From the IMG/VR virus record IMGVR_UViG_2799113093_000010: a stretch of DNA of 64,000 nt; one strand, written 5' to 3'. Positions 34,794 to 64,000 of the stretch are shown one piece after another. A model generated the notes under the pieces. It did not search any database and was not told the origin of the DNA. It saw nothing but the letters and a program-made list of their open reading frames with translations. This DNA is from a virus (taxonomy: Duplodnaviria; Heunggongvirae; Uroviricota; Caudoviricetes). How positions within the stretch are numbered: the first letter of the stretch is position 1; every line of letters starts with the position of its first letter. The position numbers were made by a program, and so were the translations under genes.

Positions 34794-34869
34794 GGCAGCG
34801 CGGGCGTGTGAATGACAGCCGGGTTGGTTCCGTTCGAAGGGGATAACCGACCGTCGTCCTGCTCGCGCC
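34794..34869 (-). ncRNA. truncated Y-RNA-like unit (YrlB-like; Ro-binding helix motifs without tRNA-like domain)
   Basis: Carries the GAGCAGGACGACGGUCGGUUAUCC and CACACGCCC motifs shared with the three units upstream. It lacks a T-arm and D-arm. It lies immediately 5' of the rsr RBS. Confidence 0.35.
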
Positions 34870-34902
34870 ACCCCCAACTGGGGCTGTGGCTCGTGTCGCG
34901 AG

Positions 34903-35047
34903 GCGGTGTGGGCGTGTGTTTGCCGACCGGTGTTTTTAGGCGTCCTAGGCCGCTGGACGACGGGGCCGCTATGCAGTCCCGGCAGGATTCGAACCTGCGT
35001 ATCCCGCTCCCGATGCGATAACCGATTGAGCGTCCTGCTCACACCGC
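34903..35047 (-). ncRNA. Y-RNA-like tRNA-mimic ncRNA, unit 3 (YrlA-like)
   Basis: Read on the minus strand it shows, in order: a 5' helix strand with GAGCAGGACGC...CGGUUAUC; a T-arm GCAGG-UUCGAAU-CCUGC; a capped acceptor-like hairpin; a D-arm GUCC-AGCGGCCUA-GGAC; and a 3' strand (CACCGGUCGG...CACACGCCCACACCGC) complementary to the 5' end. Confidence 0.5.
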
Positions 35048-35063
35048 TACGCGACGTTTGTGG

Positions 35064-35205
35064 GGTTGATGCGGGCGTGTGTGTGCTGACCGGGGTTAAG
35101 TGCTCTGCCAACTGAGCTACAGCCGCGAAGCGACTGACGGGACTCGAACCCGCGACCTCTCCATTAGAAGTGGATAACCGACCTGCGTCCTGCTCGCATC
35201 AAACC
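35064..35205 (-). ncRNA. Y-RNA-like tRNA-mimic ncRNA, unit 2 (YrlA-like)
   Basis: T-arm CGCGGG-UUCGAGU-CCCG. Acceptor-like 7-bp hairpin CAGUCGC-UUCG-GCGGCUG with a UUCG tetraloop. D-arm UAGCUCAGUUGGCAGAGCA. Its termini pair (GGUUUGAUGCG / CGCAUCAACC). It carries the conserved GCAGGUCGGUUAUCC motif. Confidence 0.55.
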
Positions 35206-35222
35206 GCTATTGAGTTGTCTGA

Positions 35223-35358
35223 GGATGGCGTGGGCGTGTGGAGTGCTGACCGGTGTTTGATCATTGCTCTGCCAGTTGAGCTATACCCCGCGAGCGGGGT
35301 AGCGGGATTCGAACCTGCGACGGTGATAACCGACCTGCGTTCTGCTCACGCCATCCGC
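35223..35358 (-). ncRNA. Y-RNA-like tRNA-mimic ncRNA, unit 1 (YrlA-like)
   Basis: T-arm GCAGG-UUCGAAU-CCCGC. Perfect 7-bp acceptor-like hairpin UACCCCG-CUCG-CGGGGUA. D-arm UAGCUCAACUGGCAGAGCA. Terminal helix GGAUGGCGUG / CACGCCAUCC. GGUCGG / CCGGUC pairs with G-U wobbles next to GUUAUC. Confidence 0.55.
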
Positions 35359-57202: not shown

Positions 57203-58134
57203 GAAGCATCTCCTTGGTTGGGTGTTGAGGGGAACTTCTCGATGACGCGTTGCACCGCGTCACGCGCGCGGACTAGGTCGCTGAGCCGTAACCCGGCGAT
57301 CTGGTCCGCGTACTTGTCGAAGCGGTCGTCGGACGTCAGTGCCTCCAGCCGCTTCACCGCCTTCGCGAGCGCCAAGGTGGCGTCGTCGAAGGAGTCCGTG
57401 AGCGGCTTCCGGCGCGCCTGCGCGGGCGCAGGCTCGGGTTCAGCCGCGGGTTCCAACAGCTCGTCGCAGTAGCGGTGGACGTCGTCGAACTCGTCGAACC
57501 GCTGCCGGTCGTCGTCGGTTGCGTTGTCGTACAGCACCGCTCGGGCACCGCAGGGGCACATCGCCATCGAGGTGATCTGCGGCTCGACACCCTGGACCGC
57601 CGGCGCGTTGCTCTGCACGATGTAGCCGTCGCCGCTGATGCGCAGCGACGGTGCGAATGGCCCGGAGCCTGTCCCGCCTTGAGACATCGGGGCAGGCTCC
57701 GGCTGCACTGGGGTGACCGGCAGGTCGGGGACCACCGAGAGATGAGGCCGCGCGGGCTGCGCAGCGGCGTACGTCTTGCCGTCGGTCCCGGTGACCGCCG
57801 CAGGTGTTCCATTTGAAACACCTGGCGTGATCGAGCGGTGCACCGTGGCCGGGCTGACCCCAGTGGCCGCTGCGATGGCGCGGGTCGAAAGGCCGGCGTC
57901 GCGCAGCGACTGCACCACCTCGGTGCGGGTTTCACGCGGGAGGCGGAACCAGGTCGAGCCGAACTCACGCTCGCAGTAGGTGTCCCAGCTCGTGTAGCCG
58001 AGGACTGCCCAGGCTCGCTGCGTGTACGCCTTCACGACGAGTTCCCAGGCGCGGTCGATGCAGGTGCGGATGCTCTCGGTGAGATCTCGTGCTGCGCTTG
58101 GCGACATCGCAGTAGCGCTGACGTTGCTCATCAC
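57199..58134 (-). CDS. helix-turn-helix DNA-binding protein (311 aa)
   Basis: Sigma-r4-like HTH LRDAGLSTRAIAAATGVSPATVHRS. Confidence 0.5.
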   Translation of the reverse strand: MMSNVSATAMSPSAARDLTESIRTCIDRAWELVVKAYTQRAWAVLGYTSWDTYCEREFGSTWFRLPRETRTEVVQSLRDAGLSTRAIAAATGVSPATVHRSITPGVSNGTPAAVTGTDGKTYAAAQPARPHLSVVPDLPVTPVQPEPAPMSQGGTGSGPFAPSLRISGDGYIVQSNAPAVQGVEPQITSMAMCPCGARAVLYDNATDDDRQRFDEFDDVHRYCDELLEPAAEPEPAPAQARRKPLTDSFDDATLALAKAVKRLEALTSDDRFDKYADQIAGLRLSDLVRARDAVQRVIEKFPSTPNQGDAS

Positions 58135-58385
58135 GCGGCCAGATCGTTCAGCGCGGGCAGCAGGTCGACCGGCCGGACCTTGAGCGCCGCGGCAGCTCGC
58201 AGCAGCGTCTTGACCGTGATGTTTTCCGAGTTGATCTGTGCGGACAGGGTGCTGCGGGCGATCTGGGTGCGCCGGGCCAGCTCGGCGATGTTGACGCGCT
58301 GCCGACCCATCTCTGCGCGGATTGCCGTCGCGCAGTCGTCGTCCGCTCGCGGCGGACCAACTAATTTCGGTATGGATGCGTGCAC
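58131..58385 (-). CDS. Cro-like XRE HTH regulator (84 aa), first gene of the leftward early block
   Basis: HTH segment VNIAELARRTQIARSTLSAQINSEN. Divergent from the CI-like gene. Confidence 0.65.
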   Translation of the reverse strand: MHASIPKLVGPPRADDDCATAIRAEMGRQRVNIAELARRTQIARSTLSAQINSENITVKTLLRAAAALKVRPVDLLPALNDLAA

Positions 58386-58476
58386 ACGTTCAACATGCCC
58401 GAAATCCGGTCAAACATCAAGTCAAAACGCAACCCATTGAAAATATGGACATTGGCGCCTGATGATGTGAACTCTC
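58386..58476. promoter_or_regulatory. divergent CI/Cro-type control region with inverted and direct repeats
   Basis: GTCAAA appears twice (58409, 58422). The inverted repeat TCAAACATCA (58410-19) / TCATGTTTGA (58467-76) brackets the intergenic region. TTGAC is repeated at the start of the CI-like gene. Confidence 0.4.
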
Positions 58477-58824
58477 ATGTTTGAGTTGACGTTGACCGGA
58501 TCCGGGCATACTGTTCGTGATATGACCACTTTGATGGAAACGTGGCCCGAGCCAGATCGGGCAACGATTGGTGAGCGTCTACGCGCTTACATGGGGGTGC
58601 ACAAGATCAGCCGCGCGAAGCTCTCGCTCGCAAGCGGAATCTCCCGCACGGCTTTGGGGCTCAAACTTGACGGACTCAGCCCCTACACAACTGAGGACTG
58701 CAAGGCGATCGGCGACGCTCTCAACAAGAGCTGGTTTTGGGTATTGACCGGCCAAGAGCTGCCCGCACCAGACCCCGGCGACGGTGGCCCCGGAGTGCCC
58801 GGTAACTCCGAATCAGAAGGTTAG
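58477..58824 (+). CDS. CI-like XRE-family repressor (115 aa; start may be the internal Met at 58522)
   Basis: HTH segment IGERLRAYMGVHKISRAKLSLASGISRTALGLKLDG. Divergent from the Cro-like gene. Its 3' end runs into attP. Confidence 0.6.
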   Translation: MFELTLTGSGHTVRDMTTLMETWPEPDRATIGERLRAYMGVHKISRAKLSLASGISRTALGLKLDGLSPYTTEDCKAIGDALNKSWFWVLTGQELPAPDPGDGGPGVPGNSESEG

Positions 58825-58850
58825 GGGTTCGAATCCCTTCGGGCGCACCA
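58806..58850 (+). other. attP common core: 3' 45 nt of a tRNA (anticodon loop to CCA; anticodon CCG, tRNA-Arg-like)
   Basis: Sequence CUCCGAA (anticodon loop with CCG), UCAGA, variable loop AGGUU, T-arm AGGGG-UUCGAAU-CCCUU, acceptor 3' strand CGGGCGC, then A and CCA. There is no matching 5' acceptor strand upstream. It lies 69 bp from the integrase gene's 3' end. Confidence 0.6.
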
Positions 58851-58918
58851 TCTATCAGGCGAAATTGGTATCTATAGGGCAGGCGACACGCCCATGAACT
58901 GATACTTTCCCGCTACTT

Positions 58919-60082
58919 TCAGGCGCTACTTTCCCAGTACTGCTCAAGGGCGCCGCGAGCATCCGGTCCCTGGGTCTGCCGCTGTAGGTAGTGAGCCTCG
59001 GTGGTCGCCAGCTTGGCGTGGGACAGCTGCTGCTGGGCCTTGTCCGGGCCGTGGGCGTCGCGGATGACCGTGGCAACTGTGCGCCGGAAGCTGTGCGGCG
59101 TGACCCAGTTCAGTTCTTCGGGCAGGGCCGCGCGGAGGGCTCGCCGTAGGTTGGCCAGGCTTACCCATCCGCCATCTCGATTGACGAACACGGGTCCGTC
59201 CATACCCGACTCCCCGATGAGTGCTGTCAGCGTCTCTACACCGAACTTGGGCAAGATCACGGTGTGCGCGGGGGCATCGGACTTCCGCTCTTCCTGACGA
59301 TGTAGGGGCTTTCCTGCGATGCGACCGTGGTCGATCAAGGTACCGGTGATGGTGAGCGTCGGCGGGTCGGCAAGAAGGTCTACATCGCACCACCGAGTGG
59401 CAAGTACTTCATTCGGGCGGCACCCGGTGGCTACGAGCAGGTCTACGAACGCGGGCAGAAGGCGTCCAGGGCGCGGCCCCGGCGCCTTCCGCTCGGCGTA
59501 CTCGCGAACGGCGGCACGGATCTGTCTAAGCTCTGTCGCGTCGGCTGAGCGAGGCTTTCTCCTGCCGGTGCCGACTGTCTTCGTCTCGCGTATCGGATTG
59601 ACGGGCACCACGTCGAACCGGCACGCCATTGAGTACATCCCCGTCAGCACCATCCGCAGCCGTTTGGCCTGACTCTTAGATGCCATGCCTTGGATGTAGT
59701 TGTGAGCGTCTTGAGTCTCCAGCTCGATGACTCGCAAGGATCCCAGCTGCGCTGCGCCGTGCGTCCTCCAGACCGCCCGATACTGATCAACCGTCTGTTG
59801 CTTAACGCCGTCCTCGGCAGCCTTTGTTTCGACCCATAGGTCGAACAGGTCGCCGAGGGCGGTTTTTTCGTTCACCAGCTGACCAGTTTTCGGTGTCCGG
59901 CGTTTCGCCAAGTGCCGTTGTAGGACGCGTCGAGCATCCTCGGCTGACTTCTCGCTGGACCGCTCTACCCGGCGTCGCTTGCCGTCCGAATCGCGTACGT
60001 AGGTGCTCGCGAAAAACTTTCCACCAGAGGACCGTTGGGTAATGCGGCCATGCTCGCCGGGGCGGAGACGTTCTCTAGGCAT
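58919..60082 (-). CDS. int: tyrosine integrase (387 aa)
   Basis: Catalytic-domain motifs TPHSFRRTVAT and LSHAKLATTEAHY (R...HxxR...Y). Confidence 0.9.
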   Translation of the reverse strand: MPRERLRPGEHGRITQRSSGGKFFASTYVRDSDGKRRRVERSSEKSAEDARRVLQRHLAKRRTPKTGQLVNEKTALGDLFDLWVETKAAEDGVKQQTVDQYRAVWRTHGAAQLGSLRVIELETQDAHNYIQGMASKSQAKRLRMVLTGMYSMACRFDVVPVNPIRETKTVGTGRRKPRSADATELRQIRAAVREYAERKAPGPRPGRLLPAFVDLLVATGCRPNEVLATRWCDVDLLADPPTLTITGTLIDHGRIAGKPLHRQEERKSDAPAHTVILPKFGVETLTALIGESGMDGPVFVNRDGGWVSLANLRRALRAALPEELNWVTPHSFRRTVATVIRDAHGPDKAQQQLSHAKLATTEAHYLQRQTQGPDARGALEQYWESSA

Positions 60083-60824
60083 CCGGCTCGATCTCCCATC
60101 CGCGGTTTGCCATTTCTGCCGTGAGGCGTTCTAGGTCCGCCCGATCAAGGTCGGCCATTGAGCGGATCGCGGCCGGGTTGGCGTCGACAAAGGTCGCTTG
60201 CTGCTCCTCTGACATCGCCGCCACCCTCTCAGCTAGGGCGATGGAATCCTGCAAGATATTCCGTCGGCGTGACAGTTTGATCCGTCGCAGGTTGTCGCGC
60301 TCATCGTCGATCCGGTGGGGGTCTGTTGACCCGTCGATGGAAGACCGGCTGATCTCGCCAGAGAACCACCGCGCAGCCACTATGGACCGGGCGGGCTGCT
60401 GTGGAAGTAGGTCCACTTCGCCATCCGGTAGGGCTGGATAGAGCAACGCGAGAGGTGGCATGTTCATAGCCGCAGCCAAGACGATGAGTTCGGCAACATC
60501 CAGCTTTCCCGACCGGTTGTTGTTCTCGATCTTGGATATTGCAATGCGGCTAATCGGATACCCAAGCGCCGCAGTGCGTTCCCCCATCGCCTCGGCTGTC
60601 AGGTTGTACCGGCGCCGGTAGTCGTAGAGAACCTTTCCTACGCGCGTCGCAATCGCCAACTGCCAGGCCTTCGCATCTACATCAACATGTGGCACCGCCT
60701 TAGTGTCGCATGAGTTCGACCAGAATGCGCCACGCCCGCGCGTATTCGATTGTATTCGGGTCCGTCCGCGCGTAGCATGTAAAGCGACCCCAGGGGCTGT
60801 GTATGGACCAGAATGCAATTTCAT
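60075..60824 (-). CDS. XRE-HTH regulator upstream of and co-directional with int (start uncertain, probably near 60680)
   Basis: HTH segment LTAEAMGERTAALGYPISRIAISKIEN. The first roughly 45 aa of the track ORF are R-rich and overlap a repeat-bearing regulatory region. Confidence 0.5.
   Translation of the reverse strand: MKLHSGPYTAPGVALHATRGRTRIQSNTRGRGAFWSNSCDTKAVPHVDVDAKAWQLAIATRVGKVLYDYRRRYNLTAEAMGERTAALGYPISRIAISKIENNNRSGKLDVAELIVLAAAMNMPPLALLYPALPDGEVDLLPQQPARSIVAARWFSGEISRSSIDGSTDPHRIDDERDNLRRIKLSRRRNILQDSIALAERVAAMSEEQQATFVDANPAAIRSMADLDRADLERLTAEMANRGWEIEPDA
60708..60816. promoter_or_regulatory. 11-bp direct repeat GACCAGAATGC x2 in the regulator/xis divergent region
   Basis: Copies at 60708-60718 and 60806-60816. 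Followed by the xis RBS AAGGAGG. Confidence 0.35.
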
Positions 60825-60867
60825 AGCCGTCTACCAGGGGATTTTCTAGAGCTAAGGAGGCTCAGCA

Positions 60868-61065
60868 ATGGATGAATTAGCCGCGCAGATTAACGCGCGT
60901 CTCTATCCGCTCGAAGAGGTTATGGACCGGTTGCTAGTTGGCCGCACCAAGCTCTATGAGTTGATAGCTAGCGGCCAGCTACGCAGCTTCAAAGTCGGCA
61001 AGAGGCGGGTGGTGTCGGACGCTGCCCTCCGCGAATTTATCGCCGCACTGGACACCGCAGCATGA
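60868..61065 (+). CDS. xis: excisionase (MerR-like HTH) (65 aa)
   Basis: Motif PLEEVMDRLLVGRTKLYELIASGQLRSFKVGKRRVV. Strong RBS. Adjacent to int. Confidence 0.7.
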   Translation: MDELAAQINARLYPLEEVMDRLLVGRTKLYELIASGQLRSFKVGKRRVVSDAALREFIAALDTAA

Positions 61066-61212
61066 AGCACCTGGCGCAGGAATCTCATCCCGATTTAGGT
61101 CTCGATCCTGCCGCCGACCTGACCGAAGACATGCGAATGGCCCCCGTAATTCCTGGTGCGTCAACACCGGGCGAGGGCCACTCCGACTACCCATCTGAGA
61201 ACAGGAGTCACC

Positions 61213-61905
61213 ATGAATCTACAGCCATCTGAGCGTTCACGGCAAGCTCTGTGCTGCGAATGCGGCCAGCTGCGAACATGTGTCCACCCCCGTAACCACG
61301 TGCTCGGTGGCTTGGGGCTCTACACGCCATTCGGTGACGGGCACCGCGAGGTGTGCGAGCTGAAATGCGACCACTGCGGACGACGTACCCGCCATGCCCT
61401 TCTCATGCGCGCTTACCAAGACCATGACGAGTGCATGCAGAAAGTGGCCCTCGGTGACCCCCACGATGGTTACACGGATGCCGAGTTGGATCGGTTGCGC
61501 GATAACTACCGAAACGGTCTGCCCCGCAACCCGTTTCTTGAGCACATGTTCTACACGGCGGACCTAGAGAAGGCGCGCGCCGCAGGCGATACGACCGCCA
61601 GAACGCTATGCGGAGAGGTTGTTGAGATAGACGACAGCCGCTTCGACTACGGGGCTATGCATGAGGTTCAGGACTACCGGGCGCCGGGCGAGGTTCGGGA
61701 CCAGGAATACGAAGACCCCAAGACGGGCCTGTGGTGGGTTGAGCAGGAATGCGTTGACTGCCTACGCATTTCGAATCAGATGGCCGCGAGATCCAAGCGT
61801 GATGAGCTATTGGGCGCTTTGTCGAACCTCCTAGCCAACCTACAGAACTATGACACGGCTTCGGTGGAACGGCTGCTGTCGGCGGTACAGGCGGTGGCAC
61901 GGTGA
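61213..61905 (+). CDS. hypothetical Cys-rich protein (about 230 aa)
   Basis: RBS GAGAACAGGAG before the ATG at 61213; motif CCECG...C...CDHCG. Confidence 0.45.
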   Translation: MNLQPSERSRQALCCECGQLRTCVHPRNHVLGGLGLYTPFGDGHREVCELKCDHCGRRTRHALLMRAYQDHDECMQKVALGDPHDGYTDAELDRLRDNYRNGLPRNPFLEHMFYTADLEKARAAGDTTARTLCGEVVEIDDSRFDYGAMHEVQDYRAPGEVRDQEYEDPKTGLWWVEQECVDCLRISNQMAARSKRDELLGALSNLLANLQNYDTASVERLLSAVQAVAR

Positions 61906-62213
61906 ACGTCAAATCGATGCCCATACAGGACATTCACGACGAGTTGTTCCGCCGCATGGTGGAGAACTATGACGCCACGGTTCCGTGCCAGCATCACGGC
62001 GGCTGTGACCGTCCGGCGAAGTGGGTGGCGGTGTTTCACGGAACCTGCCCAAGCGTCGCAGTGTGCACCCGCCACATGAAAGCGTGGGTGGCGACGATGA
62101 CCGAGGGGGTACGTGAGGGCCAGGACCTGGCGTGCTACCAGTGTCATCGGCGCTTCTTTTTCACCCTTAGTGAGCTGGTCACGTTCCACCGCCTCGACAG
62201 GGCAGGTGGGTGA
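61902..62213 (+). CDS. hypothetical Cys/His-rich protein (103 aa)
   Basis: GTG start overlaps the upstream stop (GTGA). Confidence 0.4.
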   Translation: MNVKSMPIQDIHDELFRRMVENYDATVPCQHHGGCDRPAKWVAVFHGTCPSVAVCTRHMKAWVATMTEGVREGQDLACYQCHRRFFFTLSELVTFHRLDRAGG

Positions 62214-62399
62214 GTGCACTTGGACTACGCCGAAGAGCTAGGGAGCCCCGCACGGGCCACCGCATACACGGTGACAGGCGCTGATCTGCGCGACTGCCCC
62301 GAGTGCGGTGAGCCTGCGGGGCTCCCGTGTAAGTGGCCTAACGGGCGGCGACGAAACATGCCCTGTTGGTCGCGGTGGCACCCTAAGGAGGCCGCGTGA
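62214..62399 (+). CDS. hypothetical small protein (61 aa)
   Basis: CPECGEPAGLPC motif. Confidence 0.35.
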   Translation: MHLDYAEELGSPARATAYTVTGADLRDCPECGEPAGLPCKWPNGRRRNMPCWSRWHPKEAA

Positions 62400-63151
62400 G
62401 CGAGTGGCATCGGCACACATGGAACAAAGGCATGCTCCGCTCTACGGACTTCTCGGCGGCGGACAAGCTGGCGCTGTGCTTCTGCGCGGTCTACTCGACG
62501 TACGGCACCGAGGACACGTTTAGCGTGCGCCAGAGCACCATTGCGGCCAATACAGGGCTAAGCGAGCGGTCGGTCCGGCACGCATTCAAGTTGGCCCGAG
62601 AGCTGGGCTGGCTGGAGCTGGTCACGGAGCGTCAGCGCGGCAGCCGAGGGAAGTCGGATCAGTATCGGCTAGTAATACCCGACACTGTGTCGCCTACTTG
62701 CCCCGTAGAAGTACCGGCAGAATATGCCGCTACTCCGATCGGTTTACCGGCAGAGAATGCACCCGAGTACCGGCAAAATATGTCAAAAGTACCGGAAGAG
62801 ACCGAAGCTCCTACCAGCGGAAATGACGCGCCTTTAGGTTATGTACTTAGGTTTTTAGAGGAGGGTGCGGCGACGCCGCCCCCCGCCCCCCTTCTCGATC
62901 ATCTCGGACAACCCCGCTGTCGTAAGCACTTCGGCGTAGAGAACCCACCCGACTGTCCGCCGTGCGGTCTGGAACGCGAACGCAAAGAGACCCTTGATCG
63001 ATTCAAGGCCGACCGCATCGAGGCAGAGCGCCGCGCCATCCGGGCCGCTATCGACAGCTGCCCCAACAAATGCGACGACGCGGGACGGCTAGACGACCTA
63101 TCCGATTGCCCCCTGCACCCGAACTTCCGACAGAAGAGGGACGTGGCATGA
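62396..63151 (+). CDS. winged-helix DNA-binding protein (251 aa)
   Basis: wHTH-like segment FSVRQSTIAANTGLSERSVRHAFKLARELGWLELV; C-terminal Cys cluster. Confidence 0.5.
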   Translation: MSEWHRHTWNKGMLRSTDFSAADKLALCFCAVYSTYGTEDTFSVRQSTIAANTGLSERSVRHAFKLARELGWLELVTERQRGSRGKSDQYRLVIPDTVSPTCPVEVPAEYAATPIGLPAENAPEYRQNMSKVPEETEAPTSGNDAPLGYVLRFLEEGAATPPPAPLLDHLGQPRCRKHFGVENPPDCPPCGLERERKETLDRFKADRIEAERRAIRAAIDSCPNKCDDAGRLDDLSDCPLHPNFRQKRDVA

Positions 63152-63315
63152 CGCAATTACGCCTGTATCAGAACTGCCCCATCTGCTACCGGTTGGTCAA
63201 CTCCTACGAATCGGCACCACGCCGATACGGCCATGACGCCTGCGGTAAGGCCCTTTTGAGCTGGAACTGGGAAGCCATGGACGACGACACCACTACCGAA
63301 AGCCAAGCGCAATGA
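63148..63315 (+). CDS. hypothetical small Cys protein (55 aa)
   Basis: ATGA coupling; motif CPICY...C. Confidence 0.35.
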   Translation: MTQLRLYQNCPICYRLVNSYESAPRRYGHDACGKALLSWNWEAMDDDTTTESQAQ

Positions 63316-63584
63316 CCAATGATGACGACGATCTGACAGCCGAAGAATGGGCCGAGGTATGCGTAGTGGCAGCCAGATTCGATTGGATCGTCACGCCTCC
63401 AACGAAGGCCGCCGATCTACTGCCGAAGATGCTGGAGATAAACGCACTCCAAAAGCTGGAGAACGAAATCATGGATGCCCACGGCGACTGGTTAGCGAGC
63501 ACCCGTCAGTACTTCGAGGAACGCGGGTGGCCCTGGACCACAGAGGAACTCAATAGGCGCTACCAGTTGGGGCAATGGCAGTGA
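63312..63584 (+). CDS. hypothetical protein (90 aa)
   Basis: ORF. Confidence 0.4.
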   Translation: MTNDDDDLTAEEWAEVCVVAARFDWIVTPPTKAADLLPKMLEINALQKLENEIMDAHGDWLASTRQYFEERGWPWTTEELNRRYQLGQWQ

Positions 63585-63991
63585 GCCGACTTGCTGAGGC
63601 GCGTGAACAGGCAGCGCAGGCGAAAGCTCAAGCGCTGGAGGATCAGCCGTGGTCCACGTTGTGTGATGTCTACGCGAGTGAGGGGGGTGTGGTGGCAGTG
63701 CCCACCCCCGCCGCGTCGGAGTTGATGGGTCGGCGGATGGCGTTCGACATGCTGGCATCCTCAGGTAACGCCGAGGACGTGCACCGCGTGTTCTACGAGT
63801 ACGTCTCGATTGTGGGTTCGCCCGCGTATGTGCTGCCGGTAGTGACCGGGGCGCTGATGGTGCTGGCGATAGAGATCTGCCAGGCCATGATTGGCGAGCT
63901 GGAGAACAAGAGCGACCCCGATCAACGCATCCATCTGGCCGACGCCGCGCGCATCGCGTGGTCTCTGCGGCTTGAGGGGGGCTCCGTTTGA
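63575..63991 (+). CDS. hypothetical protein (138 aa)
   Basis: ORF. Confidence 0.4.
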   Translation: MAVSRLAEAREQAAQAKAQALEDQPWSTLCDVYASEGGVVAVPTPAASELMGRRMAFDMLASSGNAEDVHRVFYEYVSIVGSPAYVLPVVTGALMVLAIEICQAMIGELENKSDPDQRIHLADAARIAWSLRLEGGSV

Positions 63992-64000
63992 AGAAGGCCG

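Follow-up and report, generated by a model that had tools for sequence, protein, structure and literature searches.

A prophage array at the tRNA-Arg(ACG) gene of Mycobacteroides abscessus and a phage repressor whose stop codon may be completed by a host base

Integration-dependent immunity is reportedly used by the mycobacteriophages BPs, Brujita and Charlie (Broussard et al. 2013). Classical attP sites that target a tRNA gene, such as that of mycobacteriophage L5, have the gene of their integrase adjacent to them, and tRNA integration sites are reported to fall into classes (Williams 2002). In Mycobacteroides abscessus, integration-dependent immunity has been described for the MabK prophages at attB-1 (PMC8092301), the site at which prophiT37-1 and prophiGD43A-5 integrate (PMC8092301; PMC9934374), and two prophages with this type of immunity, prophiT36-2a and prophiT36-2b, are integrated in tandem at attB-2 (PMC9934374). 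An ssrA-like tag ending in ...AA on the viral form of the repressor, and often on the integrase, is typical but not universal in the literature.

The DNA compared here with these systems is a stretch of 64,000 nucleotides, called the window below, that is filed as IMG/VR virus record IMGVR_UViG_2799113093_000010. It is bacterial chromosome and not a phage genome, because its repressor protein is encoded on FVHJ01000009.1, a 144-kb contig of M. abscessus subsp. massiliense of which it is a part and whose locus matches it exactly. Most of the window (1-58812) is the right-hand 58.8 kb of a MabK-like prophage, hereafter A, with early and structural genes on the minus strand. It is followed by a copy of an attachment core (58813-58850, plus strand) and by the left part of a second element, B (58851-64000), and the GC content drops across the junction from about 0.65 on the A side to 0.60-0.62 on the B side. 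The site is a seam between two prophages, in which the attR of prophage A is fused to the attL of element B, and the same succession of A's repressor gene (rep), core and B's integrase gene (int_B) is found in five contigs. The reading that we favor, with a probability of roughly 0.7, is that A belongs to a tandem array and has integration-dependent immunity in which a base of the host completes the stop codon of the repressor gene.

The core comes from a tRNA gene. The sequence at 58806-58850 (CTCCGAA TCAGA AGGTT AGGGG TTCGAAT CCCTT CGGGCGC A CCA) occurs once in the window, with 0 copies expected by chance, and the variable loop, the T arm, the acceptor 3' strand, the discriminator and CCA are all present between 58813 and 58850. 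This block of 38-39 nt is 100% identical to positions 39-76 of tRNA-Arg(ACG), the intact gene of which (GCGCCCGTAGCTCAACGGATAGAGCATCTGACTACGGATCAGAAGGTTAGGGGTTCGAATCCCTTCGGGCGCACCA) was found in seven related genomes with the 3' part ...TCTGA CTACGGA TCAGAAGGTTAGGGGTTCGAATCCCTTCGGGCGCACCA. The identity begins at 58812/58813, tRNA position 39, and not at 58806. The heptamer CTCCGAA (58806-58812, plus strand), which looks like an anticodon loop, agrees with the true loop CTACGGA at five of seven positions and is DNA of the phage-A arm. Degenerate similarity to the anticodon loop is likewise seen in the arms of other phages, and several unrelated phage arms part from the tRNA exactly at 58813/58814. 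An earlier note, made from the letters of the window, had recognized here the 3' part of a tRNA used by a tyrosine integrase, and had remarked that the complementary 5' halves are absent upstream. Both observations stand; ARAGORN finds no whole tRNA in the window and Rfam none at its gathering threshold, which for the tRNA model is 29 bits, while the site reaches 19.3 bits. On the other hand, its 45-nt core has to be shortened to the 38-39 nt of exact identity, and the anticodon CCG that it read belongs to the phage arm. The host tRNA-Arg(CCG) that it proposed as attB gives way to tRNA-Arg(ACG), the tRNA encoded by the intact host gene in all seven genomes. It had also placed the repressor stop codon and the last six codons within the core; the TAG does lie inside (58822-58824), but it is accompanied by the last three codons only (S-E-G).

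At the level of RNA, the junction is predicted to fold no better than shuffled sequence (z = -0.4), and a structured RNA was dismissed as a candidate. The heptamer GTGCCCG in the repressor coding sequence (58795-58801) could pair with the acceptor 3' strand CGGGCGC (58840-58846), which gives rise to weak Rfam matches (mascRNA, E 0.022; tRNA, E 0.11); this pairing is probably due to chance or left over from an antisense core.

To the right of the core, int_B (58919-60082, minus strand; 387 aa; Pfam Phage_integrase) converges on rep. The collection contains the same protein in 168 blocks, and in seven genomes among those listed its gene adjoins an intact tRNA-Arg(ACG) gene, tRNA-Ser(GCT) and host metabolic genes including an aminotransferase gene, with no trace beside it of the A-side DNA found left of the core in the window. 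Thus, int_B belongs to a separate element, B, together with the gene that lies upstream of it and overlaps it (60075-60824, minus strand), the excisionase-like HTH_17 gene divergent from this integrase operon (60868-61065, plus strand; Pfam HTH_17, phrog_66) and the genes further to the right. The overlapping gene, called as 206 aa, contains an HTH-like stretch and has no Pfam or PHROG match; it may encode the regulator of B. The B side of the window (58851-64000) has no match in the phage collection, and no second core copy is present within 15 kb of int_B. A considerable fraction of the M. abscessus assemblies have B next to tRNA-Arg(ACG). As seen in the window and in loci L005 and L171-L173, it comprises the integrase gene, the excisionase-like gene and small early-type genes, the latter directly followed by genes for a 1,328-aa tape-measure-like protein (PhageMin_Tail), an HNH protein, a methyltransferase and a WXG100-like protein. 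Element B may be a defective prophage or a satellite.

A tRNA 3' fragment with a repressor-like gene on one side and an integrase gene convergent with it on the other, in a window that lacks the intact tRNA, could be the attP of a free temperate phage, with the product of 58919-60082 as the cognate integrase and tRNA-Arg(CCG) as the target. This is how the earlier note interpreted the site, and the block is indeed identical to the 3' part of a host tRNA gene. However, the flanks do not come from one phage genome, as the left side resembles the MabK prophages and the right side matches no phage record, and the GC content falls where they meet in what is chromosomal DNA. Moreover, the adjacent integrase is that of B, which together with the DNA to its right occurs without prophage A beside the intact tRNA in many genomes, the host tRNA is Arg(ACG), and A possesses an integrase of a different family at its own far end, 74 kb away. 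A free-phage attP is therefore extremely improbable, and a site at which two integrated elements meet remains the reading adopted below.

The left end of prophage A lies outside the window. It is reached by locus L042, which overlaps the window over 4,166 nt with 0 mismatches and disagrees with NCBI locus L014 at 1 of 7,543 positions; together the two loci continue the window leftward with 0-1 mismatches. In the orientation of the window, this end consists of the leftward integrase gene of a third element, int_D, about 150 nt, a core copy (CAGAAGGTTgGGGGTTCGAATCCCTTCGGGCGCACCA), 160 nt and the rightward gene int_A, which encodes 312 aa; in the context of L042 the core copy reads CAGAAGGTTGGGGGTTCGAATCCCTTCGGGCGCACCA. 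The two cores that flank prophage A, at the D|A junction (window positions -15830 to -15794, in L042) and at the A|B junction (58813-58850), are both intact and directly repeated, and they delimit a prophage of 74,644 bp core to core. The third element, D, was found to the left of A in L042 (19961-20441), and its integrase-side arm resembles that of an IMG/VR phage represented by loci L176-L178. The array at tRNA-Arg(ACG) therefore has at least three members, and its order at attB-1, the M. abscessus tRNA-Arg(ACG) gene, would be host tRNA, prophage D, core, A, core and B. As with prophiT36-2a and prophiT36-2b, at least two prophages lie head to tail at one tRNA with core copies of about 40 bp between them, the cores are not all identical, and core bases of the phage end up in the rebuilt tRNA. 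Unlike those two prophages, the array described here lies at attB-1, in a tRNA-Arg rather than a tRNA-Thr gene, comprises three elements (D, A and the widespread B) and has one member, A, that is inverted relative to its neighbors.

Prophage A is about 79% identical at the nucleotide level to the MabK prophages prophiT37-1 and prophiGD43A-5, and it possesses full sets of structural, lysis and early genes. Int_A is followed by a toxin-immunity cassette, by lysis genes and then by tail genes that run on into the window. Its product shares 57-65% identity with the integrases of prophiGD43A-5, prophiT37-1, Bipper and UmaThurman and is unrelated to the integrase of B; its catalytic domain spans residues 145-288 and is preceded by about 130 residues. 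Near the integrase end (L042, 10864-14914), A encodes a GH-E polymorphic toxin with an Imm33 immunity protein and a tRNA-Arg(CCT). An Imm33 gene 92% identical to that of A is found in an unrelated phage context (L039), which fits the cassette exchange described in PMC9934374. Elsewhere in A, on the minus strand of window positions 34800-35350, about three tandem tRNA-like modules are spaced by about 160 nt, with a D-arm-like element (GGCTGTAGCTCAGTTGGCAGAGCA) and a T loop (GGTTCGAATCC). ARAGORN calls no tRNA among them. The Rfam model YrlA (Y RNA-like), which has a gathering score of 69, matches them below threshold, with 39.2 bits (E 1.8e-6) and 34.3 bits (E 4.8e-5). A Pfam scan of the open reading frames around the repeats (34.8-35.3 kb) returned no domain, and a Ro/Rsr partner was not found.

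The gene that ends in the core is, by its homology, the immunity repressor gene of A. In the form present in the prophage, rep (58477-58824, plus strand) encodes 115 aa that are 62% identical to the immunity repressors of Rem711 (gp47) and 32HC and that match phrog_2328, a family of transcriptional repressors (E 2.6e-14); the true start may be at 58522, as the homologues begin at M16. A thus has a repressor of the Rem711/32HC family, the members of which use integration-dependent immunity, and its integrase as well has its homologues among phages established as users of that strategy. In Rem711, rep is followed by the integrase gene in a rep-int operon and reads through the tRNA-derived core, and the viral form ends in ...EKDAA. 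The homologues in prophages L017 and L019 end in ...VRPKGFEPLTF*, the antisense translation of the same tRNA-Arg core, and a longer homologue, P0004, reads on beyond this peptide. The same core is also found inside the annotated immunity repressor genes of Bipper, UmaThurman, prophiGD43A-5 and prophiT37-1, with which A shares both the tRNA-Arg(ACG) core and the integrase family.

Divergent from rep, a Cro-like HTH gene of A (58131-58385, minus strand; Pfam HTH_26 and HTH_3) appears in the source assembly as a gene of 59 aa (58131-58310). The divergent promoter region between the two genes (58386-58521) contains overlapping promoter-like sites at 58437-58471, which are consensus matches only, bracketed by a perfect 10-nt inverted repeat (ATCCGGTCAA/TTGACCGGAT) at 58404-58413 and 58492-58501. 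The two halves of this repeat are candidate operators.

The two cores that flank A differ at a single base. The window has TTAGGGG where the left junction has TTGGGGG, and the differing base, 58823, corresponds to tRNA position 49. It lies in the middle of the repressor stop codon (plus strand), which is TAG with the host allele A in the window and TGG at the left junction. When the rep arm is joined to the core of the left junction, the frame remains open for 158 codons, 43 of them past the core stop, and ends in ...SEGWGFESLRAHHISDAGVFDIAEHRARRTATSPIDPVPASLPVAS* 60 nt before int_A. The attP of phage A, at the join of the rep and int_A arms, would thus read ...GGTAACTCCGAATCAGAAGGTTGGGGGTTCGAATCCCTTCGGGCGCACCATATTTCGGATGCC..., with the core inside the rep frame. 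Because the phage records, IMG/VR and the JGI metagenomes hold no attP-form copy of phage A, the TGG allele of this attP is deduced from the junctions; on their logic it is most likely.

The tail of 43 aa added in the reconstructed form bears no recognizable resemblance to those of Rem711 and P0004, and a common origin with them was set aside; its codon-position GC signal is weak. By our estimate, an open frame of 43 codons is unremarkable at 65% GC (P about 0.3). The 158-aa form ends in ...LPVAS and int_A in ...TEIPG, so that both lack the canonical C-terminal Ala-Ala tag with which the relatives end (...EKDAA, ...RPVKAA).

Where strands are exchanged can be read from a D-like phage whose integrase belongs to the same family as int_A (59% identity). 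In the attP form of this phage (L176 and L177), rep reads through the core to end in ...RPVKAA*, and at tRNA positions 49 and 65 the core has T and A, respectively. In L178 the same phage is integrated beside a B-like integrase gene, its integrase side is 100% identical over 970 nt, and its core has the host alleles, A at position 49 and T at position 65. Positions 49 and 65 are therefore host-derived at the junction with the integrase-side arm, and the exchange must take place between 58814 and 58822. The comparison thus places strand exchange in this integrase family at tRNA positions 40-48, 5' of 58823, and by extension from the relatives the crossover of Int_A would be at the same position. 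Classical tRNA-targeting systems such as L5 similarly show identity from near the crossover to the CCA end and have the phage restore the 3' part of the gene. They differ in that their crossover lies in the anticodon loop or the T loop, whereas here it lies in the 3' strand of the anticodon stem or the variable loop, and in that the site in the window is no attP.

If the crossover lies 5' of position 49, the G beside the arm of D comes from the attP of A, whichever of the two integrated first, and the resident site is the source of the A in the window. A parallel is found in prophiT37-1, whose tRNA-side junction has G and whose far junction has A, and all intact M. abscessus tRNA copies seen (19/19) carry A at position 49. 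The attP or attR cores of relatives (loci L174-L233) combine positions 49 and 65 as A-T, G-C, T-A or G.T, pairing combinations that would be expected if both bases of the rebuilt tRNA come from the phage. Lysogens of these phages possess a tRNA-Arg(ACG) with the T-stem pair (positions 49 and 65) specified by the phage. Both A49 and G49 are natural in the tRNA-Arg(ACG) of Actinobacteria, and the G allele is therefore plausibly an inheritance from another host. The same tRNA also appears to be used in another way, as the phage-like IMG/VR metagenome contig L031 (165-202) contains the same tRNA-Arg core with identity through the whole anticodon stem-loop (TTCTGACTACGGATCAGAAGG...), which points to an integrase of another class that crosses over in the anticodon loop.

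The switch suggested by these data would work as follows. In the free phage A, the cro-like gene would point leftward, followed by rep, the core and int_A, all pointing rightward. In the virus, the rep frame would cross the core, the phage copy of which would have TGG at position 49, and yield the 158-aa protein. Int_A would exchange strands within the first nine core bases (58814-58822). After integration, the rep-side junction 3' of the crossover would consist of DNA of the resident site, including the host A at 58823, which would turn TGG into TAG and leave the prophage with a repressor of 115 aa from which the tail is gone. At the same time, integration would move int_A 74 kb away from the rep promoter. 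By analogy with the known systems, the long form would be inactive or unstable and the short form would be the active repressor. The earlier note had suspected a truncation of the repressor and dismissed it on the grounds that attL and attR would have identical cores. Those of A differ, by TGG versus TAG, and the note's own caveat that the crossover region might be shorter than the tRNA homology is borne out by the exchange mapped 5' of 58823 in relatives. The suspicion was most likely correct, by the very route that had been discounted.

In another scenario, the attP of phage A already had TAG, the repressor would be of 115 aa in virus and prophage alike, without a switch, and D or a later mutation would be the source of the G at the left junction. 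In favor of this scenario, the long form has no canonical Ala-Ala tag, and the G allele is by no means specific to A, as it occurs in prophiT37-1, which reads the core antisense and on which it has no stop effect, and as it is natural in the tRNA-Arg(ACG) of other Actinobacteria. However, comparison of L176/L177 with L178 shows that in this integrase family the host provides position 49 at the P1-arm junction, and thus the G beside the arm of D cannot be that of D, whose relatives moreover have T and A, not G and T, at positions 49 and 65 of their attP cores. In addition, the sole difference between the two cores of A happens to toggle the only in-frame stop, an effect that by our count is shared by 8 of the 111 possible single substitutions. 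This scenario is unlikely, and a stop codon completed by the host base is retained as the preferred reading.

The orientation of the core sets A apart from all relatives surveyed. Rep and int are antisense to the tRNA core in 35/35 IMG/VR loci with a detectable T-loop motif upstream of the integrase gene, and in 12 more phages and prophages (Bipper, UmaThurman, GD43A-5, T37-1, Rem711, 32HC, Barebow, Arri, Peeb, L017, L019 and L021). Against these 35 loci and 12 phages or prophages, A is the only sense-core case. It follows that A has the opposite orientation to GD43A-5 and T37-1, which occupy the same site, and that its truncated repressor lies at the junction far from the intact tRNA. Two events that might have produced this layout were considered and rejected, namely that an antisense-type phage integrated backwards at the palindromic T loop, or that the DNA was inverted in situ at that loop; either would leave chimeric palindromic cores, and both cores of A are intact.

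Given that the sense orientation of A is unique among relatives, its layout could have led to a dead end in evolution and not be a design that works. An extreme version of this idea is that A is a rearranged, non-functional remnant in which a secondary rearrangement flipped the core relative to rep and int, so that the layout would say nothing about a switch. Only 5-9 contigs carry prophage A, probably from closely related isolates, which fits a remnant. By contrast, A retains full structural, lysis and early genes, its flanking cores are directly repeated and intact, and by our derivation recombination by Int in inverted alignment would give chimeric palindromic cores, of which there is no sign. 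A rep arm located 5' of a sense core could not result from a mis-join by the assembler. Furthermore, int_A, at about 300 aa, has no room for a separate arm-binding domain, to judge from its length, and for this reason the orientation of the core relative to its flanks may not matter to it. A remnant is thus rather improbable, slightly more so than an attP that already had TAG. The alternative that we prefer, a functional prophage with the core in sense orientation, can be taken a step further: phage A would be the first case of integration-dependent immunity with a flipped core, in which the TGG of attP and the TAG of the host serve as the switch and lysogeny is tied to allele 49. The evidence tips only slightly in favor of this more specific proposal.

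Set against known integration-dependent immunity, as in BPs, Brujita, Charlie and the MabK prophages, phage A as reconstructed from its two junctions would have its attP core within the rep frame; the reconstruction has a tyrosine integrase gene just downstream of rep and a cro-like gene divergent from it. Its prophage repressor is likewise shortened by a stop codon that the host supplies, TAG at the rep-side junction in place of the TGG at the other. Unlike in those systems, the core is read in sense rather than antisense, the truncated repressor is located at the junction remote from the intact tRNA, and neither repressor nor integrase ends in the canonical tag. Moreover, the stop lies within the common core, through one attP/attB mismatch at position 49, and not in flanking host DNA.

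For annotation, the locus is a reminder that a partial tRNA beside an integrase gene need not be an attP, and that neighboring integrase and repressor genes may have different owners; prophage finders that pair them will draw wrong boundaries in tandem arrays. As regards phage biology, the mapping of strand exchange to tRNA positions 40-48 is a property of this integrase family, both orientations of the core are apparently compatible with integration-dependent immunity, and a one-base mismatch between attP and attB can apparently serve as a switch. For M. abscessus phage therapy and for the use of repressors as selectable markers, it is the 115-aa form, and not the 158-aa form, that is expected to confer immunity. 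If the proposed switch is real, stable lysogeny by phage A would be set by the allele at position 49 of the tRNA-Arg(ACG) gene of the host or of a resident prophage junction.
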